From positions 1 through 64,000 of IMG/VR virus record IMGVR_UViG_3300021420_000019: a DNA stretch of 64,000 bases; one strand, given 5' to 3'. This document shows positions 2 to 62,661 of this stretch, in pieces (the first letter of the stretch is position 1; every line of letters begins with the position of its first letter). Position numbers and translations under genes: made by a program. The stretch comes from a virus. Under the pieces are notes generated by a model. It was given only the letters and a program-made list of their open reading frames with translations, did not search any database and was not told where the DNA came from.

Positions 2-3000
2 CATCGTTTAAATTACAACTTAACTGACCCGACCATCGAAGAAGCGGACACGATCCGTAAGCAGTTAAACGATGAGAACCGCGCTATCTTGAGAAAGAAT
101 ATGTGGGACGTTGATACCGCACTCGGTGTCGATCCCGCGTTCGCTGCCCGTTACGCGGCTGCGGACTCGCTTCGAAATGGTATCTATAATACGTTCGAAG
201 ATAAGGGCGTCACCGGAATCCGTGAGATGCGTCAAGATGAGAGATCGATCATCAACCTGCGCAATGCTGCTGAGAGACAGCTCGTACGCGGAGATGTCCG
301 TGTGCGTGGAAGCGGCGAGTCCGGTCCGATCCGTAAGATGCTCGCGAAGGGCGCAAGCTACGTTGGCGGTATGGCGGGCGCTGGAGTAGGCGCTGAGATC
401 GGTGGACCGCTCGGCGCGTCAGCCGGTGCGGAGGTCGGACAGCTAGCGGGGAAGAAGATCGGCGGATTGATCGCTCCCGGTGATCTAACGCGTAACGAAC
501 TTTTAGCTCGCTCTATGAAGGTCAAGGGCGGAGGGGTTCCGACTACTGAGATTCGAGGTGTGGGCGCTCCCAGCGGGGAGTTTGGACCGCCAGAGCCGGT
601 CAGTCCGAAGATGCAGTTGTATACACCGCAGCGCGAGCTGACCCCCCTGCACTCTGAACTTGCAACTCACTACGGCGAGAGTATAGATTCAAGTTACCTA
701 GACCTAGAAAAGAGATTTAAGGACGATCTAGCGGACAAGAAGGCGCACGGGGTCCCTCTAGAGCCAGCAGAGAAGACCCTACTAGGTAAGATCAACCAGG
801 CGGACGCTGTGGACAGACTAGCGGCTCAGAAGCAGATGCAGGAGACGCTCACGGCAGGGAAGAAGCCAGCGGGTCCGACTCTGCCTGATGAAGTTGAGCC
901 GTTGCTGCATCCGCCACAGTCGAAGTTAGCCGAGGGGATGGATACACAACGAGGTATCACGCACGATCTCGCGCACGTTGTCGTAGGATCGGAGCGCGGG
1001 ATTAACTTCGCGGACGGGATACAGAGCCACCTTCACCCGGAGGTAAGCTCAGCCGGTGCTTTGATGAGCGCACCGATTGACTGGGAACCGTATATCGATG
1101 ACGAAGGCAATGTTGATCCCGCGAAGCTCAAGTCAAAGATCGCCGATATCGCCGCTACGTATGTCGCTGGCGGCGTAGCAAACGATCTCTACCACGATAT
1201 CCCGTTCACAGAGAACCACCACCTGGGCGCGGACGTTCGTATATTGAAGAGCTTCATAAAGAACGTCGGCTTCACGGAAGCGGAAGCATCCAAGATGATC
1301 GCGCAGGCTGCGGACGACGCCGCGCAGGTTTTGTCGCGACCTGGCGTGCAGGATATATTAGAGCAGCACGCTGCGGTACGCGAGGCCGGACTAGATAGTA
1401 AGTACCATGTCTCTCCAGAGCGCATGGATCAAATATTACAGGACGTGAAAGATGCAAACTCAACAGGGAAGTCTACAGGAGCTATTCCAGCAAGCAACCG
1501 ACCAGGTGAAGAAGCTGGAGCCGAAGCAGAAGCTGAGCTTGAAGAAGGGAATCCAGCAGAGCTTCGACCAACGCGGAAGGGACCTACTGAAGGAGAAGGC
1601 GGCGGGGCTAGAGGAGATGAACAAGTTAAGCCCGGAGCCGAAGCAGGAACTGTAAAGTCGGAAAACCCGCAACTAGCCCTACCTAACCCAAGGGCGGCTA
1701 GCATGAAGGATGAGCCAGTCTATAAGTATAATCCGGATTTATTTAAGAGTCGGTATGGCACCGGACAAGAGTGGTATCACGGAACAACCGCAGACTTCAC
1801 TGACTTTAAACACGAAGGAATAAAAAGAGGAACCACTGATTGGAATAGCCAACTAGGAACTCATTTCGCCGCAGATGAGAACGTAGCTCATGAATTCGCT
1901 AACGGAAGATATAGCGGCGTAACAGAAGGTGGAAAAATTATTCCAGCTAAGCTCAATATCGACAACCCTAAATCGTATCAATTTGAGGGCGATATGGGTG
2001 ACGACGCATTGAAATCTGCTCTTAAGAATGGCGTTGTAACCTTAGATCAAGTTAAAAAAGTAAAGCCAGATTTCAACCCCAATCAAACATATCATGAAGG
2101 GAATGGTATCATCAATGCACTGCGCGGCAAGAGAAACGAAATTGCAACTAATTTCAAAGCAGATTTGAAATCACAAGGTCATGACGGGATTGTTTATGGG
2201 AATGTTGTTGAAGGCGGCTTCGGCAATCCCGCTGCGATAGCATTTGAGCCGAATCAGATAGAACGAACCGATATTAAGCCAGAAGAGCCGAAGCTCGGAA
2301 CAGGGACTCCCAAGTTAACTCACAAGGTAACTGAGACGGGCGGAGAGGTACGTCTCGATACCGATAAAGGCAACGAAGGAATGCTCAAGTACGCGCTTAA
2401 GGGCGACGAGGCGAGCGTGACCGGGGTACGCGCCGACGAGCCAGGTAAAGGGATCGGCACAGCGATGTACGAGCGTGCCGCTCAAGAGGTTAAGGCACGC
2501 GGCGCTAAGTCGATGACGAGCGACCTCGGTGGTCAAACCAGTATGGACGCGGCTAAGGTCTGGGACAGGCTATCAAAGGCACATCCTGGGGAGATCGAGA
2601 AGATCGACAGCAAGCCGGGATCGCCAGGGTACCGTTGGACGTTCCCAGAAGAGGTGAAGCCAGCGAACCCACAGCTATCGGTTCCGCCAGAGCGCACGAC
2701 AGGCAACTTAGAGCACGACCGTATCATCAAGGAGGGCGGCGGGATACCTGGTGGTGTATTCAAGGGTGATGCTAAAATTGGTGTTCCTGAATTAGCGATG
2801 TTTCATGATCCTCAAAGCGGGACCACACTAGCGCTAAAAACCGATGAGGGAATAACTCCTGAAAAGGTTCGCGAGAGGCTTGAAGAAAGCCGTGCGCAGT
2901 ATGCTGCGGCGAACGCTAAGAAAGCGGTTGCGAAACTGGACCAAGCTATTAAGCCGGAGAGTCCCGAACTCAGCGGCAAGAAAGTTCGGGGCGCAGCGGT

Positions 3001-3544
3001 ATCTCCGCAAACAAAAGCACAAATCTTAGCCAAAGATGTTACTGTCCCGACATTTGCTCGTGATAATGCGTATCAGTCTTTTCCGAAAGGGGCGGGGGCA
3101 ATTGATGAGGGAGATAAAAATTTTCTCCTAGCCGACGGAAGTTTGATTCATGCTGCGAGTGACCAAGAACACGATGCTATGATTGATGATATCGGGGCTA
3201 AAAGATTGCATGATGCCGGGGCTATTCGCATGACTTCGAATGGTCTGGAAATTTTTCAAAAACCGACAGATGACCAACTACAGGAAATAGGCCGCTTCGC
3301 AAAACAAAACTGGGGTGGCCACTTTTTTTGGGATTTTGCATCGAGAGATAATAAAAATTTTTACGGAAACCATCAAGGCGATGGAGAGGGGTCGATAGGA
3401 GATTTTCGAAGGGCGATAGATAACCAATACCCGTTAACGATGACCACTCCTCAGCCCGAAAAATTCGCATCCGTAGGCGGGAAGTTTGTAGGGAATACTC
3501 CGAAACCAGAGCATGCAGGAATAGCCGCACTCGAATCTAAGTAA
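2..3544 (+). CDS. Large polyvalent-type phage protein, 5'-truncated; HDLAH zincin-like, ADP-ribosyltransferase-like and GNAT-like segments
   Basis: Frame is open from position 2, so the start is outside the window. Motifs: THDLAHVVVG; WYHGT...GTHFA...GHDGIVY (ART-like); KGIGTAMYE...AAKVWDRL (GNAT-like). Confidence 0.65.
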   Translation, partial: HRLNYNLTDPTIEEADTIRKQLNDENRAILRKNMWDVDTALGVDPAFAARYAAADSLRNGIYNTFEDKGVTGIREMRQDERSIINLRNAAERQLVRGDVRVRGSGESGPIRKMLAKGASYVGGMAGAGVGAEIGGPLGASAGAEVGQLAGKKIGGLIAPGDLTRNELLARSMKVKGGGVPTTEIRGVGAPSGEFGPPEPVSPKMQLYTPQRELTPLHSELATHYGESIDSSYLDLEKRFKDDLADKKAHGVPLEPAEKTLLGKINQADAVDRLAAQKQMQETLTAGKKPAGPTLPDEVEPLLHPPQSKLAEGMDTQRGITHDLAHVVVGSERGINFADGIQSHLHPEVSSAGALMSAPIDWEPYIDDEGNVDPAKLKSKIADIAATYVAGGVANDLYHDIPFTENHHLGADVRILKSFIKNVGFTEAEASKMIAQAADDAAQVLSRPGVQDILEQHAAVREAGLDSKYHVSPERMDQILQDVKDANSTGKSTGAIPASNRPGEEAGAEAEAELEEGNPAELRPTRKGPTEGEGGGARGDEQVKPGAEAGTVKSENPQLALPNPRAASMKDEPVYKYNPDLFKSRYGTGQEWYHGTTADFTDFKHEGIKRGTTDWNSQLGTHFAADENVAHEFANGRYSGVTEGGKIIPAKLNIDNPKSYQFEGDMGDDALKSALKNGVVTLDQVKKVKPDFNPNQTYHEGNGIINALRGKRNEIATNFKADLKSQGHDGIVYGNVVEGGFGNPAAIAFEPNQIERTDIKPEEPKLGTGTPKLTHKVTETGGEVRLDTDKGNEGMLKYALKGDEASVTGVRADEPGKGIGTAMYERAAQEVKARGAKSMTSDLGGQTSMDAAKVWDRLSKAHPGEIEKIDSKPGSPGYRWTFPEEVKPANPQLSVPPERTTGNLEHDRIIKEGGGIPGGVFKGDAKIGVPELAMFHDPQSGTTLALKTDEGITPEKVRERLEESRAQYAAANAKKAVAKLDQAIKPESPELSGKKVRGAAVSPQTKAQILAKDVTVPTFARDNAYQSFPKGAGAIDEGDKNFLLADGSLIHAASDQEHDAMIDDIGAKRLHDAGAIRMTSNGLEIFQKPTDDQLQEIGRFAKQNWGGHFFWDFASRDNKNFYGNHQGDGEGSIGDFRRAIDNQYPLTMTTPQPEKFASVGGKFVGNTPKPEHAGIAALESK

Positions 3545-51465: not shown

Positions 51466-51540
51466 CGTCCCTCCTGATCCGAGGGTACGAGTCGGGGTGG
51501 CTCACTCCACCCCGGCATCCCTAGTGAGAGGGAATAAATG
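51466..51540 (+). promoter_or_regulatory. Kissing-loop leader RNA, copy B
   Basis: Loop CTCACT (51501-51506) complements loop AGTGAG (51523-51528). Confidence 0.8.
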
Positions 51541-52353
51541 CACATCAGCGAGAAACAAGTTCCTGGGAAGGAACACACATTTGTAGCTGTGAATGGAAAG
51601 ACCGAGACTGGGACTTTACCCGCTCTTCGTGGGCAAAGCAACTCTTTTGCGTTTTGGGTTAAAGACGAAGCTTGCATAAACGGTGGGTACTGGCGATCCC
51701 AGCTATATTTAACTCAGCGTAGAAAGGATTGGTCTACCGGAAAGAATGGCTTATTAGGGAGAATGAGGAACCTAATGAATAGCCAGAAGCAACAAGCTCA
51801 AAGAAACGGGCACAAGCCACCACTTGTTACTGCCGAACAGATGTCATCAATGTGGGTGTCCCAGAACGGTTTATGCGCTGCTTGCGGTGGTCAGTTGAGT
51901 TTATTAGGTGCTGCTTTTGACCACAATCATGAAACTGGCGAACCACGCGGCTTCCTTCATCAATATTGCAATATCGCTGAAGGATGTACAACGCGGATGA
52001 CGGAAGAAGAATTCAGAAAATTTGTAGAGTTTATCGGGAGTATTAAGATGAAGCATGATAAAGCGTACGATCAGCCAACCAACATGGCTAACGCTGGCAC
52101 GACCACACCGGCGGCTAAGGTATCTGGCGATATCAAGAATGATGCCCTAGGCAACCCGAGCCGGTTCGCACGTAACGCGAGCACCTCGGTGACCGAAGAC
52201 ACTAACTCTGAGATCGATACCCTCCGCGAGCTTCAACTCGGTTCAAACGGATATCAGGCAAATGGGTACCACCCCAGGGTGGCGAACTCCCCAGTTCCTA
52301 CGAGAGGTTTCGGAGAAAGTAAGGCAGATGTAGGCGGGTACCAAGGCGAGTAA
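51538..52353 (+). CDS. Endonuclease VII-like domain fused to an unrelated low-complexity C-terminal protein
   Basis: QNGLCAAC...FDHNHETGEPRGFLH..CN; internal GGGAG-ATG at MKHDK. Confidence 0.75.
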   Translation: MHISEKQVPGKEHTFVAVNGKTETGTLPALRGQSNSFAFWVKDEACINGGYWRSQLYLTQRRKDWSTGKNGLLGRMRNLMNSQKQQAQRNGHKPPLVTAEQMSSMWVSQNGLCAACGGQLSLLGAAFDHNHETGEPRGFLHQYCNIAEGCTTRMTEEEFRKFVEFIGSIKMKHDKAYDQPTNMANAGTTTPAAKVSGDIKNDALGNPSRFARNASTSVTEDTNSEIDTLRELQLGSNGYQANGYHPRVANSPVPTRGFGESKADVGGYQGE

Positions 52354-52741: not shown

Positions 52742-52818
52742 GGCGGACGGGGCGATACAGGTGACGCCCCAGACTGTGAATCTGGGTATAGTGGGTTCAA
52801 GGCCCATCGTCCGCCCCA
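52742..52818 (+). tRNA. trnH: tRNA-His(GTG) with encoded G-1 and CCA
   Basis: CCAGA-CT-GTG-AA-TCTGG. Confidence 0.9.
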
Positions 52819-52830
52819 AAAATTGTTACG

Positions 52831-52912
52831 CAGGTCCAAATCCTAGCGTGATGACCTGATCGGGGAGTGCCAGTAACACTCCCTGATTTGACTCTTTACT
52901 GGAGGGTCTATG
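52831..52912 (+). promoter_or_regulatory. Kissing-loop leader RNA, copy C
   Basis: Loop CCAGTAA (52870-52876) complements loop TTACTGG (52896-52902). Confidence 0.8.
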
Positions 52913-53410
52913 AGCAGTGCAAAAGATATGCGAGCGCAGTTGGGGATGTATCCTACAACCGCCAGGCATAAGTTAAATAGATTGATAATGTTTTCTTTAG
53001 TTCAGAAGTCCGGATTGGATTTGTGCTTTCGATGCGGAGAGAAGATACTGACGCCGAAAGAATTATCGGTAGACCATAAGTTGCCTTGGTTTCGTATTTC
53101 CACGGAGCTGTTTTGGGATTTAGAGAACATAGCCTTCTCACATTTCTCCTGTAACTCGGAAGAGGGCCGGTCGAGAAATCCGAGCAATACTAGGAATCCG
53201 AATTTAATAGCTCCTGACGGGATGCTATGGTGCAGTAGATGTAAGGATTATAGACATATTGAAGATTTTAGTCCATCTAGACGAAAGTCTAATGTTGGGC
53301 ACGTCTGTAGAAAATGCGTATCAGATAAAGAGAAAACACGCTATTCTAAAGCTGTAAATCGTCCGGTTAGAGGCTACCGACAAACTATGAAAGCCTCAAA
53401 AGATTTTTGA
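52910..53410 (+). CDS. HNH endonuclease (paralog of 56423..56860)
   Basis: CFRCGE...SVDHKLPW...FWDLENIAFSH..CN. Confidence 0.85.
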   Translation: MSSAKDMRAQLGMYPTTARHKLNRLIMFSLVQKSGLDLCFRCGEKILTPKELSVDHKLPWFRISTELFWDLENIAFSHFSCNSEEGRSRNPSNTRNPNLIAPDGMLWCSRCKDYRHIEDFSPSRRKSNVGHVCRKCVSDKEKTRYSKAVNRPVRGYRQTMKASKDF

Positions 53411-53419
53411 AAATAAGTG

Positions 53420-53448
53420 TTGACAAACAAAACGGTTTGTGAGACACT
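53420..53448 (+). promoter_or_regulatory. Promoter of the main tRNA array
   Basis: TTGACA, 17 nt, TGA-GACACT. Confidence 0.6.
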
Positions 53449-53671
53449 ATGAAAGTCGAGAACGGAGATACCCACCGACTAATGTCACGGGCTTCGCTCG
53501 ACAAAGTTTGATACTGTTTCATGCCGGAGAGATGCTAAAGCCGTGCACGGCTAATCTGGTGTGATGACATCGACCGGAGTCACTCCCTTTAGGGCGTGAA
53601 CTCCTTAGCCTGGTCAGCCGTTGACGCGAAGGCATCCGGTCTAGAACGTTTTCGTCGGCGAATATTTTTAT

Positions 53672-53746
53672 CCTTGTCTGATGTTAATGGTAGCATTCCT
53701 GTTTGAAGCACAGGCTGTAACCGTTCGAGCCGGTTGGCAAGGACCA
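53672..53746 (+). tRNA. trnF: tRNA-Phe(GAA)
   Basis: CCTGT-TT-GAA-GC-ACAGG; CCA. Confidence 0.85.
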
Positions 53747-53828
53747 GTTAGAGACATGCGGAGTCCGCGACGGATAGAAACGGCGCGGAATCCTACAGCG
53801 AGACGCAAGTCACCATGTCCACGTTTAT

Positions 53829-53916
53829 GCGTCTGTGGATGGAATAGGCAGACACGTCGGTCTCAAAAACCGATGACAGAGATGGCGTGGGAGTTCGAGT
53901 CTCCCCGGACGCACCA
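53829..53916 (+). tRNA. trnL: tRNA-Leu(CAA)
   Basis: TCGGT-CT-CAA-AA-ACCGA; variable arm; CCA. Confidence 0.9.
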
Positions 53917-53923
53917 ATTTTAT

Positions 53924-54013
53924 TGTGGGCAGCATTGGATGCAGCGGACACTTATAAAGTCCGAATCAGCAGATCGCTGAGCCGATAGGGTCCGATTCCC
54001 TAGTCCACAACCA
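53924..54013 (+). tRNA. trnI: Atypical tRNA with TAT anticodon (Ile), long variable arm, short D-arm
   Basis: GGAC-A-CT-TAT-AA-A-GTCC; TCAGC/GCTGA arm; CCA. Confidence 0.7.
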
Positions 54014-54018
54014 AGTTT

Positions 54019-54104
54019 GCCGTTGTGACGGAATGGTATACGAGGGAGTCTTAAAAACTCCTGTGCTCACGCACATGCTGGTTCGAGTCCAGTCAACGGC
54101 ACCA
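54019..54104 (+). tRNA. trnL: tRNA-Leu(TAA)
   Basis: GGAGT-CT-TAA-AA-ACTCC; CCA. Confidence 0.9.
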
Positions 54105-54108
54105 ATCT

Positions 54109-54176
54109 GGCGGAGACAGAGGTTCGATTCCTCTCTTAGGTCACTGACCCGAGTCGTCTAGCGGCAGGATACCGCC
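54109..54176 (+). ncRNA. Circularly permuted tRNA-like element (Y RNA/YrlA-like topology)
   Basis: Order: GGCGG, variable loop, T-arm, loop-closed acceptor-like stem, D-arm, CCGCC. Confidence 0.7.
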
Positions 54177-54431
54177 TAACAAGATCGCAAGTCCTACGGG
54201 GCGAACGATAGAACACGGCAGGGCGAACTCGGGTGGAAACACTTTAGAGCATCTGTGCTCCGTGGGCTCGGGGAACGCGACATCCCCAGAATTTGATATT
54301 CCAGAGACCTGTAAGTCCCTGATACGGCAAGGTCCCGGATTGCCAGGACGGTGCTACGCGCCACGATGGGGCCGCTTTGATGCTACTGGGCCAAGTTAAC
54401 CAGTCAGTCCTGGCATAGGTATTCAAGTTTT

Positions 54432-54507
54432 GAATTCGTAGCTCAATTGCTAGAGCAATCGACTCTTACTCGATGGGTTGTGGGTTGGACTCCCACCGGA
54501 TTCACCA
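54432..54507 (+). tRNA. trnK: tRNA-Lys(CTT)
   Basis: ATCGA-CT-CTT-AC-TCGAT; CCA. Confidence 0.88.
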
Positions 54508-54577
54508 AGTTTGACGTTCACTTAACAGTGAGATAACGACCGTAGCGGTTTCGCGTGACTCCGCCGTCAAAAGATTC

Positions 54578-54652
54578 GGATCGCTAATTCAAAGGCTAGA
54601 AGCGCTCTCTTTTAAAGAGTTAATCTCCGTTCGAGTCGGAGGCGATCCACCA
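54578..54652 (+). tRNA. trnK: tRNA-Lys(TTT)
   Basis: GCTCT-CT-TTT-AA-AGAGT; CCA. Confidence 0.88.
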
Positions 54653-54660
54653 AGTTCTAT

Positions 54661-54748
54661 TGAGCCCATGACACAATGGTGTGTCCCTTCTCTGTAAAAG
54701 AAGCGGTCCTTGCGACCACGGTCAGTTCGATCCTGACGGGCTCAACCA
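54661..54748 (+). tRNA. trnY: tRNA-Tyr(GTA)
   Basis: CTTCT-CT-GTA-AA-AGAAG; variable arm; CCA. Confidence 0.85.
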
Positions 54749-54749
54749 T

Positions 54750-54824
54750 AGTCGAGTAGCACAATGGCGGTGCAGACTCTTGATAGGAGTAAGGCTGTCC
54801 GTTCAAGTCGGACCTCGACTACCA
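54750..54824 (+). tRNA. trnI: tRNA-Ile(GAT)
   Basis: ACTC-TT-GAT-AG-GAGT; CCA. Confidence 0.85.
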
Positions 54825-54900
54825 ATATTGATATCCGGGGGACTAACTAGGAGCCGTATAGCAGCCTAGTTCAATGCTGTACGGGAAACCTCCCCGGCGT

Positions 54901-54975
54901 GGGCGATGAGTAGGACGGGAATATTCCTGCTTTGCAAGCAGCGAGAAATCGGTTCGACTCCGATATTGTCCACCA
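54901..54975 (+). tRNA. trnA: tRNA-Ala(TGC)
   Basis: CTGC-TT-TGC-AA-GCAG; G3:U70 pair; CCA. Confidence 0.8.
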
Positions 54976-54982
54976 AATTTAC

Positions 54983-55054
54983 ACCCTGTTCGCCAAGCGG
55001 CTAAGGCATCTGGTTTACACCCAGACATTCGGGAGTTCAAATCTCTCACGGGGT
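54983..55054 (+). tRNA. trnV: tRNA-Val(TAC), irregular acceptor stem, no encoded CCA
   Basis: TCTGG-TT-TAC-AC-CCAGA. Confidence 0.7.
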
Positions 55055-55055
55055 A

Positions 55056-55132
55056 CGGGCTGTTCGTTCACCGGAATAGGACACGACGCTACGAACGTCG
55101 AAAAAAGAGTTCGATTCTCTTACGGCCCTCCA
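55056..55132 (+). tRNA. trnR: tRNA-Arg(ACG)
   Basis: CGACG-CT-ACG-AA-CGTCG; CCA. Confidence 0.88.
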
Positions 55133-55136
55133 TCTT

Positions 55137-55212
55137 GACCCTGTAACTCAGCGCACAGAGTGTCCGCCTTCGAAGCGGTTCGCCGGGGGTTGGAATCCCT
55201 CCAGGGTCTCCA
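55137..55212 (+). tRNA. trnR: tRNA-Arg(TCG)
   Basis: CCGC-CT-TCG-AA-GCGG; CCA. Confidence 0.85.
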
Positions 55213-55321
55213 GTATGTTGTAATACGAAGCGTAACACAACAGAAGGCGGCTACCAGTTGTGGGTAGGTCGCAAGTGAAATCCAAAGCACGTTCGGTGAT
55301 AGCCCGGACAACATTTTCTGT

Positions 55322-55409
55322 TAAGGCGTAGGGGAATTGGTAGACCCGCTCGGCTGTTACCCGAGAGTCGTAAAGACACCTGTAGGTTCGAAACCTACCG
55401 CCTTAGCCA
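55322..55409 (+). tRNA. trnN: tRNA with GTT (Asn) anticodon and long variable arm
   Basis: CTCGG-CT-GTT-AC-CCGAG; GTC-GTAAA-GAC arm; G73; CCA. Confidence 0.8.
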
Positions 55410-55417
55410 CTTTCAAA

Positions 55418-55492
55418 GGACGATTAGTTTAATCGGTAGAACTGCTGTCTTGTAAACAGCGGGAAATGGTTCGAGACCATTATCGTCCTCCA
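55418..55492 (+). tRNA. trnT: tRNA-Thr(TGT)
   Basis: GCTGT-CT-TGT-AA-ACAGC; CCA. Confidence 0.88.
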
Positions 55493-55564
55493 AGTTTTGT
55501 CTCTCGGTCATTATGGCCAAGCCGAGAAAATCTCTGTGGCGCAGAGTAAAGACAAAAAGTTTAA

Positions 55565-55639
55565 GCAGGGCTAGTATAATCGGTAGTACGCGCCCCTCGT
55601 AAGGTCGTAATGCGTGTTCGAGTCACGCGCCCTGCTCCA
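55565..55639 (+). tRNA. trnT: tRNA-Thr(CGT)
   Basis: CT-CGT-AA loop; CCA. Confidence 0.85.
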
Positions 55640-55700
55640 AGTTAAGCGGTGCCTCACTCTGATGTCCAGGTTAAATGTTCAGACAGCCGCTCTTGATTTT

Positions 55701-55774
55701 GCTGGCATAGCTCAATGGAAGAGCTTCCGCTTGGTAAGCGGAGGACTTGAGTCCGATTCTCAATGCTAGCTCCA
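55701..55774 (+). tRNA. trnT: tRNA-Thr(GGT)
   Basis: TCCGC-TT-GGT-AA-GCGGA; CCA. Confidence 0.88.
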
Positions 55775-55781
55775 ATTTTAC

Positions 55782-55859
55782 GGCCTGTTGGTCCAGCCTG
55801 GAGTGGACGCGTCCTTGTCACGGACGAGATCGTGGGTCCGAATCCCACACGGGTCGCCA
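55782..55859 (+). tRNA. trnD: tRNA-Asp(GTC)
   Basis: CGTCC-TT-GTC-AC-GGACG; G73; CCA. Confidence 0.9.
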
Positions 55860-55864
55860 TTTAC

Positions 55865-55938
55865 GGCCCTGTCGATTAGTGTCAGGTCATTCGCTTCTCA
55901 AGCGAACAGCAGCGGTTAGATTCCGCTCAGGGCCACCA
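55865..55938 (+). tRNA. trnE: tRNA-Glu(CTC)
   Basis: TTCGC-TT-CTC-AA-GCGAA; CCA. Confidence 0.85.
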
Positions 55939-55943
55939 AGTTT

Positions 55944-56020
55944 GAGGACATGGTCCAATCGGTAGCGATGCTGGCCTTTCAAGCCATGCGGTGCGGGTTC
56001 GAGTCCCGCTGTCCTTACCA
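55944..56020 (+). tRNA. trnE: tRNA-Glu(TTC)
   Basis: TGGC-CT-TTC-AA-GCCA; CCA. Confidence 0.85.
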
Positions 56021-56032
56021 AATCGAGGAACT

Positions 56033-56293
56033 ATGAGCTGGGTGATGGTTAACGACTTCACCGTCGTGGAAAGAAAAGAAGACGGCACGGTAACACAGCA
56101 GGTGTTCACCTCGCACGCCCAGGCCCGTCAGTTCATGGAGAAGTACGCGGGACAAAAACCTATGAGGCCGCACAAGCCCACGATGCCTAGTCACGCTCGC
56201 GCTAGGTCCGGTAGTTCAAAGCCTATCATCCCGCAGACAGCGGAACAGATAGCGCTGAGAGAAGCGGCGCTGAAACAGTTTAACGGTTTGTAA
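56033..56293 (+). CDS. Hypothetical protein inside the tRNA array
   Basis: GAGGA RBS, start MSWVMVNDF; fills the gap between tRNAs. Confidence 0.6.
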   Translation: MSWVMVNDFTVVERKEDGTVTQQVFTSHAQARQFMEKYAGQKPMRPHKPTMPSHARARSGSSKPIIPQTAEQIALREAALKQFNGL

Positions 56294-56300
56294 GTTTAAT

Positions 56301-56387
56301 CCGCTGGTGATGGAATTACCAGACATGCGAATCTTAGAAATTCGTGCCCTATGTGGCGTGGGAGTGGAAGCCTCCCCCGGCGGACCA
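56301..56387 (+). tRNA. trnL: tRNA-Leu(TAG)
   Basis: CGAAT-CT-TAG-AA-ATTCG; variable arm; atypical T-loop; CCA. Confidence 0.85.
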
Positions 56388-56422
56388 ATTTAAATCTTAT
56401 CAACGACCGGGAGGTCAACGAT

Positions 56423-56860
56423 ATGAAACTGAAAGACGAATCTAAGTCAGAGCGTCGCGCTAATCAATTAGGAATGTCTTACGGTACAGCATCCGGTAGA
56501 CTTCGTAAGATGATACTATTTGATGTATTGAGAAAGCACAGCGAGAATAAATGTTTTAAGTGCGGCGAATTGATAGAGTCCGAAAAAGACTTAAGCATCG
56601 AGCATAAACAGCCCTGGGAAAATAAAAATCCCGATCTGTTTTGGGATTTAAATAACATCGCTTTTTCTCACATGTGCTGCAACATACCGCATGTTTATAA
56701 GGGCAGCGGAGCGTCACTTAGAAAGATCGGTCCGGAAGGAACTTCGTGGTGCTGGCAGCATAAAGAATTTTTACCAATTGGAGAATTTTATACGGATTCT
56801 TCAAATTGGAACGGTCTACACAGCAGATGTAAATCTTGTCATAAGTCTAGACCTAGATAG
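56423..56860 (+). CDS. HNH endonuclease (paralog of 52910..53410)
   Basis: CFKCGE...SIEHKQPW...FWDLNNIAFSH..CN; GGAGG RBS inside a GACC/GGTC hairpin. Confidence 0.85.
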   Translation: MKLKDESKSERRANQLGMSYGTASGRLRKMILFDVLRKHSENKCFKCGELIESEKDLSIEHKQPWENKNPDLFWDLNNIAFSHMCCNIPHVYKGSGASLRKIGPEGTSWCWQHKEFLPIGEFYTDSSNWNGLHSRCKSCHKSRPR

Positions 56861-56867
56861 TTTCTAC

Positions 56868-56942
56868 TGCCCGTTATAGTTCTGTTGAACTTCGAGGTCT
56901 CATAAGCCTTGCAGGTTGGTTAGATTCCAACACGGGCTACCA
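56868..56942 (+). tRNA. trnM: tRNA with CAT anticodon (Met, fMet or Ile2 unresolved)
   Basis: GAGGT-CT-CAT-AA-GCCTT; 1:72 mismatch; CCA. Confidence 0.75.
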
Positions 56943-56948
56943 CTTTAA

Positions 56949-57022
56949 GCGTCTGTGATGTAACGGTAGCATATTTGACTGCCAGTCAAATCGTCTCGAT
57001 TCGAATTCGAGTAGACGCCCCA
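56949..57022 (+). tRNA. trnG: tRNA-Gly(GCC)
   Basis: TTTGA-CT-GCC-AG-TCAAA; CCA. Confidence 0.85.
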
Positions 57023-57240
57023 CATTGATGTTCGCCTGTCCGTGGCGCGAGTAATTACCGCAGCCGCCCAGGCCGGAGCCCGATCCCGAGAGTGTAAAAC
57101 GTCATAGTCGGAAAAATTTATGAGTGAACAAAAACAGTGTTTAGAGTGCAAAGTTCCGATACACGAGGGTCCATTCGGCCCGTACATAGTGTATCTAAAC
57201 GAAGACGGAACTCCACATATTTGCGATAAGAAATAGTTTT

Positions 57241-57314
57241 GCAAGCATGGTATATAGATTGTGCCCCGGCCTTCCAAGTCGGAGAATCGAGTTTGAGTCT
57301 CGATGCTTGCTCCA
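57241..57314 (+). tRNA. trnG: tRNA-Gly(TCC)
   Basis: CCGGC-CT-TCC-AA-GTCGG; CCA. Confidence 0.85.
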
Positions 57315-57321
57315 AGTTTAT

Positions 57322-57396
57322 ATGAGAGTCGTCCAGCGGCCAGGACTGCGGTCTCCAAAACCGCGTACGGTGGTTCGAGTCCATCCTCTCATGCCA
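57322..57396 (+). tRNA. trnW: tRNA-Trp(CCA)
   Basis: GCGGT-CT-CCA-AA-ACCGC; CCA. Confidence 0.9.
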
Positions 57397-57401
57397 ATTT
57401 T

Positions 57402-57478
57402 GTCTCTATAGCTTAACGGATAAAGCGCCGAGCTTCTACCTCGGGACCACGCGGGTTCAATTCCTGCTAGAGACTCCA
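57402..57478 (+). tRNA. trnR: tRNA-Arg(TCT)
   Basis: CCGAG-CT-TCT-AC-CTCGG; CCA. Confidence 0.9.
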
Positions 57479-57554
57479 ATTTTCGTGGCCGCCCTAACGG
57501 GTATAAAACTATCGGGACGATATAGACGGCGAAAATTCCCGAGCGGAAGATTAC

Positions 57555-57630
57555 GGACGCGTAGCACAGCGGACAATGCGGCTCTCCCCTAAAGAGTCAG
57601 GCCCAGGTTCAACTCCTGGCGCGTCCCCCA
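57555..57630 (+). tRNA. trnR: tRNA-Arg(CCT)
   Basis: GCTCT-CC-CCT-AA-AGAGT; CCA. Confidence 0.85.
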
Positions 57631-57874
57631 GTTCTACCGAGGTCTCATGTGGACCGCAGTCGTTGATGGCTACATCATAACACAAAGAATGTCCGATGAC
57701 GACGTGTGGTTCAGATGTAACTTGTTCGGAAGGGAGCCGTTGATAGACGCACTTGAGAGGTTCCTGAAAGATACCGAAGACAATGGACACAAAGACTAAG
57801 AACGGGCTCCTGCGGCTCTCGATACTGTGGGGCCCGATAGCGATCTTGGTTATCTCGATTTTGACGAATTAGTT

Positions 57875-58164
57875 TGGCAGTCTAGACAATCGCGGGGAAC
57901 CGAGGAAAGTCAGGACACAACTAAGTACAGTGCCGTGGGAGATGCGGGCCGGGCAACCGGACGGGTAAGCCTCCGTATCGCATTGCGAGTTAACACTCTC
58001 GTTGCGTTCATTGGAGCGGAGACAGTCCACACTGGTGCAATCGAAAATAGGACCTGAGCGTTTACTTAGCGTGTTGAGGGTCGGGTTTCGAGCAAAGAGG
58101 AATGATTGTCGCCGCGACTTGTGTAGTATCGTTCGCGGAACAAAATCCTGCTTATTGACTGCCA
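57875..58164 (+). ncRNA. rnpB: Compact RNase P RNA
   Basis: GAGGAAAGTCAGGAC (57902-57916) and AACAAAATCCTGCTTAT (58139-58155) form P4; P1 TGGCAGTC/GACTGCCA; P2 GACAATC/GATTGTC. Confidence 0.88.
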
Positions 58165-58178
58165 CACTTTAGGATCAT

Positions 58179-58391
58179 ATGCCGCAATCAGTTGACGAAA
58201 TTCTAGCAGGCGCAAAGGAAACATTGGCGAACGCCAACAAGGCCTTCCCGAGTTCTTCTCCAGCGCCCCCGCAACCGCAGAAGCCCTCTTACACTGCGGC
58301 GCACGCAGCGAGAAAGGCCGTCCCGAGTATGGGCGATGAGCTAGCGGCTAAGGGCACGATGGTCGATAAAGCGAAACAGGCGTTGAAGTAA
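58179..58391 (+). CDS. Hypothetical protein
   Basis: 70 aa; AGGA RBS; PSY.AA motif also seen in 3740..3994. Confidence 0.55.
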   Translation: MPQSVDEILAGAKETLANANKAFPSSSPAPPQPQKPSYTAAHAARKAVPSMGDELAAKGTMVDKAKQALK

Positions 58392-58395
58392 TTAC

Positions 58396-58481
58396 GGAGC
58401 GGTGCCGAAACGGTAGCCGGATATGTTTGCTAAACATACGTCCGAAAGGACGTGGGAGTTCGAGTCTCTCCCGCTCCGCCA
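58396..58481 (+). tRNA. trnS: tRNA-Ser(GCT)
   Basis: TATGT-TT-GCT-AA-ACATA; variable arm; CCA. Confidence 0.9.
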
Positions 58482-58617
58482 GATTGAATACTTGTCCGAA
58501 AGGGCATAGGGAACCTTAAACGGTAAAGACGCGAGAATATCTAAAAGCTATTCGAAGCGGACCTTGCAGTCGAAAGACGAAACTGAGAATCTTAGCAAGG
58601 GGTTCCCGAGCATTTAT

Positions 58618-58701
58618 GGAAAGCAGTCGGCAATGGTGCCTCACAGTCTTGAAAACTGTACCACCCGCAAGGGTGACGGAGTTCGATTCTCCGGCTTTCC
58701 T
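58618..58701 (+). tRNA. trnS: tRNA-Ser(TGA), no intact CCA
   Basis: ACAGT-CT-TGA-AA-ACTGT; variable arm. Confidence 0.8.
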
Positions 58702-58703
58702 CC

Positions 58704-58777
58704 GTCCGAGTCGGCAAATGATAAGCTAGTCGTCCGCAAAACGACAATCGCTGGTTTGATTCCAGCCTCGGACTCCA
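58704..58777 (+). tRNA. trnC: tRNA-Cys(GCA)
   Basis: GTCGT-CC-GCA-AA-ACGAC; U73; CCA. Confidence 0.85.
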
Positions 58778-58786
58778 AATTTCTAT

Positions 58787-58860
58787 TCCCTTGTCGGCTA
58801 AAGGCAGGCCACGAGTCTTTGAAACTCGTTACGGACGTTCGACCCGTCCCGAGGGAACCA
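58787..58860 (+). tRNA. trnQ: tRNA-Gln(TTG)
   Basis: CGAGT-CT-TTG-AA-ACTCG; CCA. Confidence 0.88.
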
Positions 58861-58867
58861 TTTCTAC

Positions 58868-58942
58868 TCCCGTGTCGGCTAACTGGAAGGCCAGCGCCCT
58901 CTGAAGGCGTTAATTTTCGTTCGAATCGAAACGTGGGAACCA
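58868..58942 (+). tRNA. trnQ: tRNA-Gln(CTG)
   Basis: GCGCC-CT-CTG-AA-GGCGT; CCA. Confidence 0.85.
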
Positions 58943-58946
58943 TTTC

Positions 58947-59372
58947 ATGAAGAAACTGTTACTCGCTCTCGTGTTAATTTTGGCTCTCGCGACACCAGCG
59001 CAGCCGAGGCACCACGCGAGCCAAGGTATCATCATCGAGATTCACGCGAGCACCACGTACGAGACCGGCAGGTTGAAGCGGTTATCAGATAAGCTCAACT
59101 TCGACGGACAGCATATGGTCCCTTGGTGGAGAATCGTAGTTCTGAACAAAGCCGATTGGACAGATGCTCTCATTAAGTATAACCTCGAAGGGCAAACTGA
59201 TAGCGCGTTCACCGTCCTAGGTCAGAACGTGACATTCGTGAACGAAGACTATATCGGCTTTGCCGATGACGCTAGGTTAGAACACACGCTAGCCCACGAA
59301 AGTGCTCATTTGATTTGTTCATGCACTAGTGAAGATACCGCGAATAAGATCGCGAAGATTCTAGAGAAGTAA
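58947..59372 (+). CDS. Exported HExxH metallopeptidase-like protein
   Basis: Signal peptide; LAHESAH...SE..AN. Confidence 0.7.
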   Translation: MKKLLLALVLILALATPAQPRHHASQGIIIEIHASTTYETGRLKRLSDKLNFDGQHMVPWWRIVVLNKADWTDALIKYNLEGQTDSAFTVLGQNVTFVNEDYIGFADDARLEHTLAHESAHLICSCTSEDTANKIAKILEK

Positions 59373-59449
59373 GCCGAGCAGAGGCTCCGAATTCGGAACG
59401 GTACGTTCTCGTTAGATGCTCTGTAAAGGATACGAGATCAGGTACTACA

Positions 59450-60205
59450 GTGAGAAAGTTTCTCGCATTGGCTCTATCGTTGGTCCTACTTATCTCCGGA
59501 TCAGCCGTACTCATTACGGGCGCACCAAGATCGTTTGAACCCCAGGCTCGCGCAGCCACGGGCGCTATCTTCGTTGATGCTGACCGTAGATTCGAATGTT
59601 CCGGAACTGAAATAGCTCACACGAAAGACGGTGACGGAATATTTTTGACGGCTCGTCATTGCGTTGCTTCTGTCGAAACAAACAAGATCACTCGGCGCAT
59701 GCAACTGTCCTTTTCAGACAACATGGGCGGACCTTACTACGATGCCGTACCGATTGCGATTTCAACCAGTGATGATCTAGCTCTTCTGCTTGTTAGAAAT
59801 GGTGCGAGCATTCCAGAGGTGAAGATCAAGGACGAGCGTAGGCTACGCGGCGGTGATCCGATCTTTAACGTTAGCTACCCTCTCGGAGCAGGTAAGTTAA
59901 TTTTTCATGGGGAATATTTAGCTCCCAGGTTCCCGATGTTTCCTGGCATACTTGCGGATTACCCCATGTGGCAGTTCGCGATGCCAGCAAATATTACGTG
60001 GGCTCACGGGTCCAGTGGTAGTGGGGTCTTCAGTAGCGGGCAGCGTGCTTTGATCGCGGTCTGTGTCGGAACGTTTTCTGAGGGCAGTTTCAACGTGGCA
60101 ATCCCCGCAGATAGAGTACTTGACTTTCTTGCGGATTTATCGGATAATACAGTTGAACGGTTTGCTTTGCAAAACCCTGAGAAGGAAGAAGTAGAAGTCT
60201 TTTAA
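59450..60205 (+). CDS. Exported trypsin-like serine protease
   Basis: CSG, LTARHC, DLALL, GSSGSG; N-terminal hydrophobic segment. Confidence 0.88.
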   Translation: MRKFLALALSLVLLISGSAVLITGAPRSFEPQARAATGAIFVDADRRFECSGTEIAHTKDGDGIFLTARHCVASVETNKITRRMQLSFSDNMGGPYYDAVPIAISTSDDLALLLVRNGASIPEVKIKDERRLRGGDPIFNVSYPLGAGKLIFHGEYLAPRFPMFPGILADYPMWQFAMPANITWAHGSSGSGVFSSGQRALIAVCVGTFSEGSFNVAIPADRVLDFLADLSDNTVERFALQNPEKEEVEVF

Positions 60206-60218
60206 TTTAATCAGATAC

Positions 60219-60294
60219 GTTCCGCATAATTAACGGAACCAGGCTTGGGAGAGCCCCTACTCTCCCAGGCCGACTCTTAAGGGAGAGACAAATG
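60219..60294 (+). promoter_or_regulatory. Kissing-loop leader RNA, copy D
   Basis: 12-bp stem 60242-60253/60260-60271; loop CCCCTA pairs with TAAGGG at 5/6 positions. Confidence 0.65.
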
Positions 60295-60942
60295 AAAGGA
60301 CATCTTTACAGATATCCGCATCCGTATAGTTCAGATAAGTTTATTTACGCCGGGCAGGGCGAGAAACGCGATAATGAGCATCGCGGTGGCCGAACTAGTT
60401 TCGGTCGTAGATTCGAGAAACTATTTCCCGGCATTGAATTGCCGAATCCGGTAAGAGAGACGATTGAAGTCCGAGATTATTTAGAGCTAAATGAACTAGA
60501 AATAATCTGGATGTTTCAATATCATACTTGGCGTGGATATCCTGGCGGAATGAATTTAACTTTACCCGGGTCAATCGATTATAGGAGTATGGGTTTAATC
60601 GGCGGACGTGTTCAGGGCCCTAAGAACGTAGAATCGGGGGCGCTAGCAAAAATCCAAAGTGCAGGCGGGCGTGTTAGCGGTCGAATGAATTCTGAGTCCG
60701 GACGTATTCAAGAACTCGGTCACACGCAGGGTCGTAAGAATGTTGAAAGCGGGCAACTTGCCAGTATACAAAGTATGGCCGGTCGTGCCGGTGGGCGCAT
60801 AGCTTTAGAAAGCGGACAATTTTCTGGAATCAGAAGCAGAGGTAATCATAGTCGTTGGCACATAGCCCGTGGTATTTCTAGACCGAGTGTTTGTTCGTTG
60901 TGTGCAGAAACAGAAAATTTAACGAGAACTAGCTTAACGTAG
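60292..60942 (+). CDS. GIY-YIG-like homing endonuclease with repeated (N)VESG C-terminal units
   Basis: HLY...IYAGQ..R...LNELE...GMNLT. Confidence 0.75.
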   Translation: MKGHLYRYPHPYSSDKFIYAGQGEKRDNEHRGGRTSFGRRFEKLFPGIELPNPVRETIEVRDYLELNELEIIWMFQYHTWRGYPGGMNLTLPGSIDYRSMGLIGGRVQGPKNVESGALAKIQSAGGRVSGRMNSESGRIQELGHTQGRKNVESGQLASIQSMAGRAGGRIALESGQFSGIRSRGNHSRWHIARGISRPSVCSLCAETENLTRTSLT

Positions 60943-60996
60943 AGCACGTGCTTTGGAAGCACGGGGGTGAAGTTTCGAGCACTTCGTTCTCGACCA
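60923..60996 (+). tRNA. trnP: tRNA-Pro(TGG), overlapping the end of the upstream ORF
   Basis: CGTGC-TT-TGG-AA-GCACG; CCA. Confidence 0.82.
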
Positions 60997-61004
60997 GTTT
61001 AAAA

Positions 61005-61078
61005 CGGAAATTCTGATAATGGTAGTCTCTACGTTTCGGATACGTAGGGCGGACGTTCGATTCGTCCATTTCCGACCA
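61005..61078 (+). tRNA. trnP: tRNA-Pro(CGG)
   Basis: TACGT-TT-CGG-AT-ACGTA; CCA. Confidence 0.82.
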
Positions 61079-61128: not shown

Positions 61129-62661
61129 ATGGCTACAGTAACTCAGCAGTTAGGCAGAGCAGCGGCGTATGATCTATTGGCGGCAGCGGGCATTACGAAC
61201 ACAGGTTCAAGTATTATTGCCGGGGGAAACGTAGGAAGCTTTCCCACAGCAACCTACACTCTTGATGGAATGATCTTTATTCCTCCCGCAGCATTAGATT
61301 CAGCAGACGCTCAGAACGCCCAGATCGACAACAATGCCGCCTTCCTCTTCTTCCAAGCTCTGCCTCAGACAATGGCCCTCTCAACAGCCGACATCGGCGC
61401 GACCGGCATTCAACACAGCCCCGGTGCCCCCAATGGCACCTACTATCCTGGCGTATATGTTTCCCCAAGTTCAATTGCAATTTCTACTCCAGTCACTCTA
61501 GATGCGCAGGGCAATCCTAACGCGGTGTTCGTATTTTATTCTACGGGTTCAACTATCACTCAGGCTATAGCTGGCACAATTAACTTGGTCAACGGAGCAA
61601 AGGCCGCTAACGTAGTGTGGCTCGTGGGTAGCTCTTGGACTAGTATCGGCCCCGGCGCTTTGACACAGGGCAACATTATTGCGGCCACCTCTATCACTTT
61701 AGGTGGGGGAGTACTCAATGGTAGGGCACTCGCGGGAGCGGTAAACTCCAGCGGAGCGATCACGATAGCTGCGGCAGAAAGTATCACTGCTCCGGCCAGC
61801 GTCGGTACTCCAACTACAGCGGGCGGTCAAGCTCAAGCTTTGATCGCTACACAACCTGGGGTTTCGGTTCCCACGGCTTATCCTCAAGTTACAGGCCAAG
61901 GAATTATTCCTCCTCAAGATTTGGATATGCTTCAGATCATCGGAGAGGGCGGAGATATTTTAGTATCTGTAGATTATCTTGGAACAGTTCATAACGTTAC
62001 AACTAGCCAGTCATCTACGTCTCCATTGACCTCAGTTGCGATCTCTTCGTTCCCAATTACCTCTGTCACATCAGCGGGAGTATACACCGGAACATTTCCT
62101 GCGGGCACGAATACAGTAGCCGGTCAGACTGCGGTCATCTCTGGCTTCACGAACGGCGGCAATAATGGAACGTTCACGATCACCGCATCTACAGCGACAA
62201 CTATCACCGTGACCCCGAACACGCAAGTTAACGAGAGCGCTTCGGCTCAAGCGTTAATTACGGGCTTTAGTCAAAGTACCTATAACGGAACTATCACAAA
62301 CGGCGCGGCCAGCGGGCTCGCCGGACGCTTTGTTTCGGTCACTGGCTTCACGAACTCGGGTAACAACATCTCTAACACCTTGGTTATCTCAAGCACCGCG
62401 ACAACTATCGTGACATCTTACACCGCGCAGGTCGCTGAGACACACGCGGCTACCGCCACTGTGTCTGCGTCGTTCACGCCGTCTAACGGCTGCCGATTGG
62501 GCCAGTATTTCACGAGGCTCCTACCCGGTGCAACTATCGCTCAGTTATTTACCGACGCTTTTGCTAACCCCAGTCTCTTGGACATCGTCCATGTGTATGT
62601 ACCGAATAGTGGGGCCATCGTCTACATTTTGGATCACAACGGCGTGGCTAGTGGCAGCTAA
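61129..62661 (+). CDS. DUF3494 ice-binding-like beta-solenoid fused to Thr-rich beta repeats (probable virion protein)
   Basis: LA..GITNTG, PGVY, VTLDAQGNPNAVFVF, LVNGAKAANVVW.VGSS, GNIIA..SITL, GRALA; no signal peptide. Confidence 0.85.
   Translation: MATVTQQLGRAAAYDLLAAAGITNTGSSIIAGGNVGSFPTATYTLDGMIFIPPAALDSADAQNAQIDNNAAFLFFQALPQTMALSTADIGATGIQHSPGAPNGTYYPGVYVSPSSIAISTPVTLDAQGNPNAVFVFYSTGSTITQAIAGTINLVNGAKAANVVWLVGSSWTSIGPGALTQGNIIAATSITLGGGVLNGRALAGAVNSSGAITIAAAESITAPASVGTPTTAGGQAQALIATQPGVSVPTAYPQVTGQGIIPPQDLDMLQIIGEGGDILVSVDYLGTVHNVTTSQSSTSPLTSVAISSFPITSVTSAGVYTGTFPAGTNTVAGQTAVISGFTNGGNNGTFTITASTATTITVTPNTQVNESASAQALITGFSQSTYNGTITNGAASGLAGRFVSVTGFTNSGNNISNTLVISSTATTIVTSYTAQVAETHAATATVSASFTPSNGCRLGQYFTRLLPGATIAQLFTDAFANPSLLDIVHVYVPNSGAIVYILDHNGVASGS

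Follow-up and report, generated by a model that had tools for sequence, protein, structure and literature searches.

A phage tRNA array encodes a reduced type A RNase P RNA with relatives in other viruses

We report that a phage encodes a genuine, reduced RNase P RNA of the bacterial type A whose fold is under selection. RNase P RNA genes are widespread in phages, and the copy described here is among the more reduced ones. The gene lies within a tRNA array in a 64,000-nucleotide stretch of DNA (here called the window), which comprises positions 1 to 64,000 of a 101,523-bp IMG/VR virus record that is 95% complete. RNase P RNA, one of the few universal ribozymes, has been considered a gene of cells and organelles. 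A search of about 8.4 million full-text papers and preprints, a body of literature outside which most subscription journals lie, turned up no description of a viral RNase P RNA gene. Viral RNase P RNA is absent from a 2024 review of RNase P, and RNase P is nowhere mentioned in a survey of huge phages (PMC7162821).

Identification of the RNA by covariance-model search

A sequence-only reading of the window had proposed a phage-borne RNase P RNA, about 290 nt long and located in the tRNA array, and had named a covariance-model search as a check. The Rfam model of bacterial type A RNase P RNA (RF00010), searched with an E-value threshold, matched the plus strand of the window from end to end (model positions 1 to 367) with a score of 86.1 bits and an E value of 1.4e-26. 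Other members of the Rfam clan scored lower on the element. The element measures 290 nt between the ends of P1, as proposed, and 296 nt over the Rfam extent (Table 1). The curated gathering score of RF00010 is 100 bits, and because 86.1 bits falls short of this cut-off, the element escapes default Rfam scanning of the window; at the Rfam gathering thresholds, tRNAs alone were reported. Despite its sub-threshold score, the match is far beyond chance. The RF00010 match, the covariation described below, and the position in the array agree on a phage RNase P RNA inside a tRNA array. Plain MFE folding of the element gave z = -2.2 and did not recover the pseudoknotted native structure.

Anatomy of the element

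The CR-I strand GAGGAAAGUC, with its bulged U, pairs with the CR-V strand to form P4. Both P4 strands had been recognized in the sequence-only reading, and both are present, at 57902-57916 and 58140-58155, with 8/8 pairs around the bulged U. Compensatory changes had also been claimed for this helix, and two are confirmed, the usual CCGGG/CCCGG having become CAGGA/UCCUG. P1, P2, and the tiny P3 of the same reading are all paired, P3 consisting of 3 bp with a GGAA loop. P3 is a known protein-contact region; among the relatives, its site ranges from 3 bp up to inserts of ~70 nt.

The P7-P8-P9-P10 cruciform of the specificity domain is present, and L9 is a GNRA loop. In the alignment of the relatives, all pairs of P7 (5/5) and P9 (4/4) covary and P8 is nearly invariant. 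P10 is weak in the window element (2/3 pairs, judged by eye). Two conserved single-stranded joiners, GGGUAAG and UCAUU, flank P11 and P12. In the alignment to RF00010, P13, P14, and the canonical J11/12 and J12/13 modules (CR-II and CR-III), which read the tRNA elbow, were not found in the window element, nor was P18 with its GNRA loop. The P15-P16-P17 arm and the P6 pseudoknot, the mark that separates type A from type B, were both found. The L15 GGU of type A RNAs docks the 3'-CCA of tRNA, and this motif is kept. At the P19 site, 10 of 11 distinct relatives have a hairpin, which differs in sequence and is often GNRA capped.

Table 1. Features of the phage RNase P RNA and its tRNA array (window coordinates)
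Feature	Position	Strand	Remarks
Whole RNase P RNA-like gene	57874..58169	+	Rfam extent; P1-to-P1 core, 57875-58164
P1, 5' strand	57875..57882	+	Pairs with 58157-58164; 8/8 pairs; 5/8 covary in relatives
P2, 5' strand	57885..57891	+	Pairs with 58104-58110; 7/7 pairs in 13/13 sequences; 5 double-changed
Minimal P3, 3 bp, GGAA loop	57893..57902	+	Rfam alignment: 9-bp model P3 cut to 3 bp
CR-I and P4 5' strand, bulged U at 57910	57902..57916	+	Pairs with 58146-58153; invariant in relatives
P6 pseudoknot, 5' strand	57921..57926	+	Pairs with 58064-58069 in L17; 6/6 pairs; 5/6 compensatory
P7 5' strand, P8 hairpin, P9 hairpin with GNRA (GCAA) loop	57928..57960	+	Covariation
Reduced specificity arm	57963..58021	+	105 Rfam model positions reduced to 62 nt; without P13 and P14
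P11, 5 bp	57971-57975 with 58017-58021	+	Covaries in relatives
P12 hairpin	57979-58006	+	Length differs between relatives
P7 and P5 3' strands, J5/15 GCAA	58030..58040	+	GCAA invariant in relatives
P15-P16-P17 arm with L17 (P6 3' strand)	58041..58091	+	P15: 4/4 pairs covary
Loop CGGGU with CCA-binding GGU	58082-58086	+	CGGG invariant in relatives
J18/2 (CR-IV), intact	58094..58105	+	P18 deleted: 24 Rfam model positions reduced to 0 nt
P19-like hairpin, ~27 nt, added between P2 and P4 3' strands	58112..58138	+	Relatives' alignment
CR-V and P4 3' strand	58140..58154	+	Pairs with CR-I strand
Same-strand array of 32 tRNA genes	52743..61078	+	31 from ARAGORN, one tRNA-Cys from Rfam

The P4 variant of the window also occurs in at least four ordinary bacterial rnpB loci, which are chromosomal and belong to Bdellovibrionales and Bacteroidales. 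Since ordinary bacterial rnpB has it too, the variant fits a working enzyme and is not a hallmark of phages. These cellular loci have no tRNA within 8 kb. One cellular Bdellovibrionales rnpB likewise lacks P18.

The fold is under selection

The fold was evaluated in an alignment (A2) of 13 sequences, 59 to 82% identical to the window element, with an explicit structure in which P4 and P6 were entered as pseudoknots. Of the pair cells, 94.7% were paired, compared with 30 to 43% when partners were slid by 1 to 3 columns, and 38 of the 65 pairs had changes on both sides. The covariation score was 0.518, against at most 0.088 in the slid versions, and was reached by 0 of 500 shuffles. Compensatory changes were densest in P2, P7, P9, P15, and P6, and P1, P2, and P3 all covaried; in P1, P16, and P17, a few cells are unpaired because of MAFFT register slips. 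CR-I, CR-IV, CR-V, the GCAA of J5/15, and the GGU of L15 were invariant in the 13 sequences. The invariance of P4 is uninformative, as P4 served to retrieve the aligned sequences.

Since the fold covaries across relatives, the element is explained neither as a decaying relic nor by overlapping ORFs. Two such ORFs (98 aa on the minus strand and 76 aa on the plus strand) were rejected because the relatives show helix-preserving changes together with length changes in P3, P12, and P19.

The host phage and its tRNA array

Upstream of the tRNA array lie genes for a prim-pol, a family A DNA polymerase (PolA), a helicase, and ribonucleotide reductase. The DNA polymerases of the nearest cultured phages are at most 37.5% identical to that of the window phage. 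Elsewhere in the window are a polyvalent protein of ~1150 aa with an ART-PolyVal ADP-ribosyltransferase domain (89-3544, plus strand) and a 510-aa protein with an N-terminal ice-binding-like domain (PF11999, 8e-29; 61129-62661, plus strand).

The 32 tRNAs of the array serve all 20 amino acids. The sequence-only reading had called them atypical, a description that the data do not support, as the tRNAs look ordinary: 31 were called by ARAGORN, 27 (tRNA-Cys included) exceed the Rfam tRNA cut-off of 29 bits in two Rfam scans, and a 3'-CCA is encoded in at least 29 of the 32. The tRNA-Cys(GCA) (58704-58777, plus strand), which has an encoded CCA and adjoins tRNA-Ser(UGA), was missed by ARAGORN and scored 49.4 bits with Rfam. 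A sub-threshold Rfam match to Plastid-ycf2 (58.1 bits versus a cut-off of 65.7) on the minus strand at 57402-57476, antisense to tRNA-Arg(UCU), is almost certainly a tRNA-derived artifact.

Many spacers in the array are just 5 to 8 nt long. Two tRNA pairs, Val-Arg(ACG) (54983-55132) and Ser(UGA)-Cys (58618-58777), have no spacer at all, and the upstream tRNA of each lacks a full encoded CCA. In these pairs, a single RNase P cut would yield both the 5' end of the downstream tRNA and the 3' end of the upstream one. Endonuclease VII and HNH endonuclease genes also lie within the array (51538-52353, 52910-53410, and 56351-56860, all plus strand), probably as mobile genes of the homing type.

The RNase P RNA is separated from tRNA-Arg(CCU) by 243 nt (57631-57873) with two small ORFs of 50 and 29 aa. 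This segment looks inserted, because the RNase P RNA begins 3 to 6 nt past tRNA-Arg(CCU) in the nearest relative (G018, described below) and in most other relatives. A 70-aa ORF without a Pfam match (58179-58391, plus strand) begins 15 nt past the RNA. Homologues of 68 to 80 aa trail the element in G018, L431, L435, and L437; in G014, G023, L438, L440, and L441, the ORF is missing and a tRNA follows directly, so that it is kept in about half of the subtype.

The sequence-only reading had seen no RnpA-like protein in the window, and no RnpA-family ORF (PF00825) was found in the whole 101.5-kb record. A CCA-adding enzyme (PF01743) and peptidyl-tRNA hydrolase (PF01195) were likewise not found in the window phage. 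A promoter and terminator scan gave no private promoter or terminator for the RNase P RNA above chance; the sole promoter-like site on the plus strand lies across P1 and P2 of the RNA itself and is likely spurious.

Relatives in other viruses

The exact P4 15-mer of the window occurs in 59 viral contigs, 21 of which have the matching 3' strand as well. RF00010 confirmed homologues in 20 of the 31 viral records searched, over the whole model and with one copy per record. Their lengths are 158, 164 to 166, 191, 198 to 233, 249, 276, 308, 349 to 351, and 363 nt, and almost every one is in, or adjoins, a tRNA array on the same strand. At the upper end, little of a type A RNA is missing from the 363-nt copy (267 bits); the copy of G015 has the full set of P13/P14 and canonical J11/12 and J12/13 modules. 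At the other extreme, the 191-nt copy of G013 has 142 model positions of the specificity domain reduced to 4 nt.

The nearest relative, G018 (101,668 bp, 98% complete), carries a 308-nt copy that scores 102.6 bits with RF00010. Its locus is syntenic with that of the window: Arg(CCU), the P RNA, the small ORF, Ser(GCU), Gln, Gln, Pro, and Pro. A metagenome scan added ten further copies of exactly the window's subtype, and several copies of this subtype start 3 to 6 nt after the CCA of the upstream tRNA.

A second search, in which two covarying P4 positions were left open, found 24 further compact copies on viral contigs, 22 of them in same-strand tRNA arrays. Their P4 strands differ yet are always complementary (CCGGA/UCCGG, CGGGG/CCCCG, CGGGA/UCCCG, and the canonical form). 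RF00010 confirmed 22 of the 23 searchable records of this set. Since 18 of these 23 other compact viral copies pass the curated cut-off, phage RNase P RNA is discoverable with standard tools; pipelines that apply the Rfam cut-off overlook more reduced members such as the window element. In total, 42 other viral records carry RF00010-confirmed homologues of 158 to 363 nt, one copy each. RnpA was found in none of the 43 element-bearing viral records searched, 8 of which are at least 90% complete.

Copies of 158 nt that comprise the catalytic domain only occur in jumbo phages (L306, L307, and L308, from G010, G016, and G007, and also L028 and L046), and one carrier is a complete 328-kb genome. 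Each lies directly upstream of a tRNA, and two of them follow a phage tmRNA at a distance of ~1.5 kb. A structured module of ~60 nt, with a hairpin capped by a GAAA loop and a conserved three-way shape, is shared by two related phage P RNAs. It sits at P12 in one (L303:1501-1851, G014) and at P3 in the other (L304:1501-1849, G023) and seems to be a peripheral RNA module that can move.

The window element had no blastn match among 50,697 cultured-phage records, and blastn of four other family members against phage records returned just uncultured gut fragments or misfiled bacterial contigs. The window DNA polymerase, used as a query for related loci, gave no confirmed relatives. Two further search patterns, one of P8 only and one that combined P4 with CCGTGG across a variable gap, were dropped, as the matches listed for them were chance ones in coding DNA.

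Proposed function

A function of the window RNA as a ribozyme subunit is probable. As an explanation of the whole, we favor with some confidence a conserved RNase P RNA that works with the host's RnpA and matures the phage tRNAs. We infer catalysis and use of the host protein from the conserved core, the retained CCA-binding GGU, and the absence of rnpA from 43 of 43 records. With no private promoter or terminator above chance, the RNA would be transcribed together with the surrounding tRNA array, and cuts made in tRNA processing would free it from that transcript. Folded into a complete catalytic domain and a trimmed specificity domain, it would then assemble with host RnpA. The predicted holoenzyme would remove the 5' leaders of the 32 densely packed pre-tRNAs of the phage, recognizing their encoded 3'-CCA via the conserved GGU loop. 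In this way, the phage could gain its own supply of a ribozyme that limits tRNA maturation in infection. Host RNase P RNA is a stable RNA, which counts against the need for an extra phage copy.

Activity of the RNA alone and affinity for substrates may be weak, because P13, P14, P18, and the canonical J11/12 and J12/13 are missing; an RNA without P13, P14, and P18 should depend strongly on protein. Extending the proposal to the family, we lean slightly toward a scheme in which tailed phages with tRNA arrays keep RNase P RNA lineages that have been pared from ~360 nt through 290 nt, an active intermediate, to ~158 nt and that depend on host RnpA.

Alternative explanations

Two alternatives accept a functional RNA and dispute its partner or its task. 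An active ribozyme might dispense with host RnpA, acting alone or with a phage protein such as the product of the 58179-58391 ORF. The lack of RnpA in all 43 viral records, the small ORF that follows the element in the window and four relatives, and a minimal P3 that may weaken RnpA contacts are consistent with such an enzyme, but the ORF has no Pfam match and is missing in five relatives, and the J18/2 and P4 region, which binds RnpA, is invariant. Reduced bacterial P RNAs also depend more, not less, on protein in vivo, and we regard independence from RnpA as unlikely. The RNA might instead be a decoy or hijacker that binds host RnpA or competes with host P RNA, thereby redirecting or throttling host tRNA maturation. 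A phage that encodes no protein partner and an RNA that keeps protein-contact and core motifs while its substrate-reading domain is eroded could be read in this way. A pure sponge, however, needs neither the invariant catalysis and CCA-docking blocks nor the covarying P6 and P15-P17, and the gene sits among its presumed substrates, which makes a decoy improbable.

The remaining alternatives deny the phage a functional gene. The sub-threshold Rfam score and the loss of P13, P14, and P18 might suggest a decaying, functionless relic of a captured host rnpB. This idea is effectively refuted by the compensatory pairs (38/65) and paired cells (94.7%) among relatives 59 to 82% identical, since random drift would have broken the helices; it also runs against the invariant core, the synteny with the 98%-complete G018, and the single copy per record in 42 viral records. 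Misassembly or mis-binning of host DNA into a viral contig is a general concern, as some IMG/VR contigs are proviral or host contaminated, and G049, a provirus in which the match lies at the contig edge with no tRNAs nearby, may be such a case. For the window this is very unlikely: the gene is 57.9 kb from the start of a record of 101.5 kb, phage replication genes precede it and further phage-type ORFs follow it, and it sits inside a same-strand array of 32 tRNAs interrupted by HNH and endonuclease VII genes, whereas the cellular rnpB loci with the same P4 stand apart from tRNAs.

Implications and comparison with known systems

Active phage copies would add tRNA maturation to the known phage translation toolkit of tRNAs, tmRNA, and synthetases and would mark RNase P capacity as a bottleneck of infection. 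If the proposal is true, they would also be the smallest bacterial-type RNase P RNAs in nature and a natural set of deletions that shows what the ribozyme needs, and the gradation from 363 nt down to 158 nt would test, in nature, which parts it can spare.

The window element resembles the bacterial type A RNAs, such as E. coli M1 RNA (rnpB) and the Thermotoga maritima P RNA, in its helix order (P1-P5, P7-P12, and P15-P17), in the bulged U of P4, the P6 pseudoknot between J5/7 and L17, the GCAA of J5/15, and the GGU of L15, and in keeping CR-I, CR-IV, and CR-V. It differs from them in length (~290 nt versus ~350 to 400 nt), in lacking P13, P14, and P18, in a P3 of 3 bp, in the replacement of the canonical J11/12 and J12/13 by other conserved joiners, and in the added P19-like hairpin. 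It is also phage encoded, within a tRNA array and with no rnpA alongside.

Small or minimal bacterial P RNAs include that of Mycoplasma fermentans (~276 nt), the "Micro P" and Min1 constructs, and the type A RNA of Chlorobium, which lacks P18. In these RNAs, peripheral helices (P12-P14 and P18) are dispensable and activity with protein is kept. They are cellular or synthetic, whereas the window element is viral and stands in a graded series that reaches down to 158 nt. The type T RNase P RNA of Pyrobaculum (RF02357), which is archaeal and has archaeal protein partners, has nearly lost its specificity domain; it resembles the smallest viral relatives, such as the 191-nt copy of G013, whereas the window copy still has P7-P12. 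The RNase P RNAs of plastids, cyanelles, and mitochondria are reduced, type A-derived RNAs of small genomes that lie beside tRNA genes and rely on proteins encoded elsewhere. Their evolutionary setting differs from that of the window element, and no relation is implied.

Large phages are known to carry translation-related RNAs in the form of tRNA arrays and tmRNA (Al-Shayeb et al. 2020, PMC7162821). The window element occupies the same genomic niche and presumably follows the same logic of translational autonomy.
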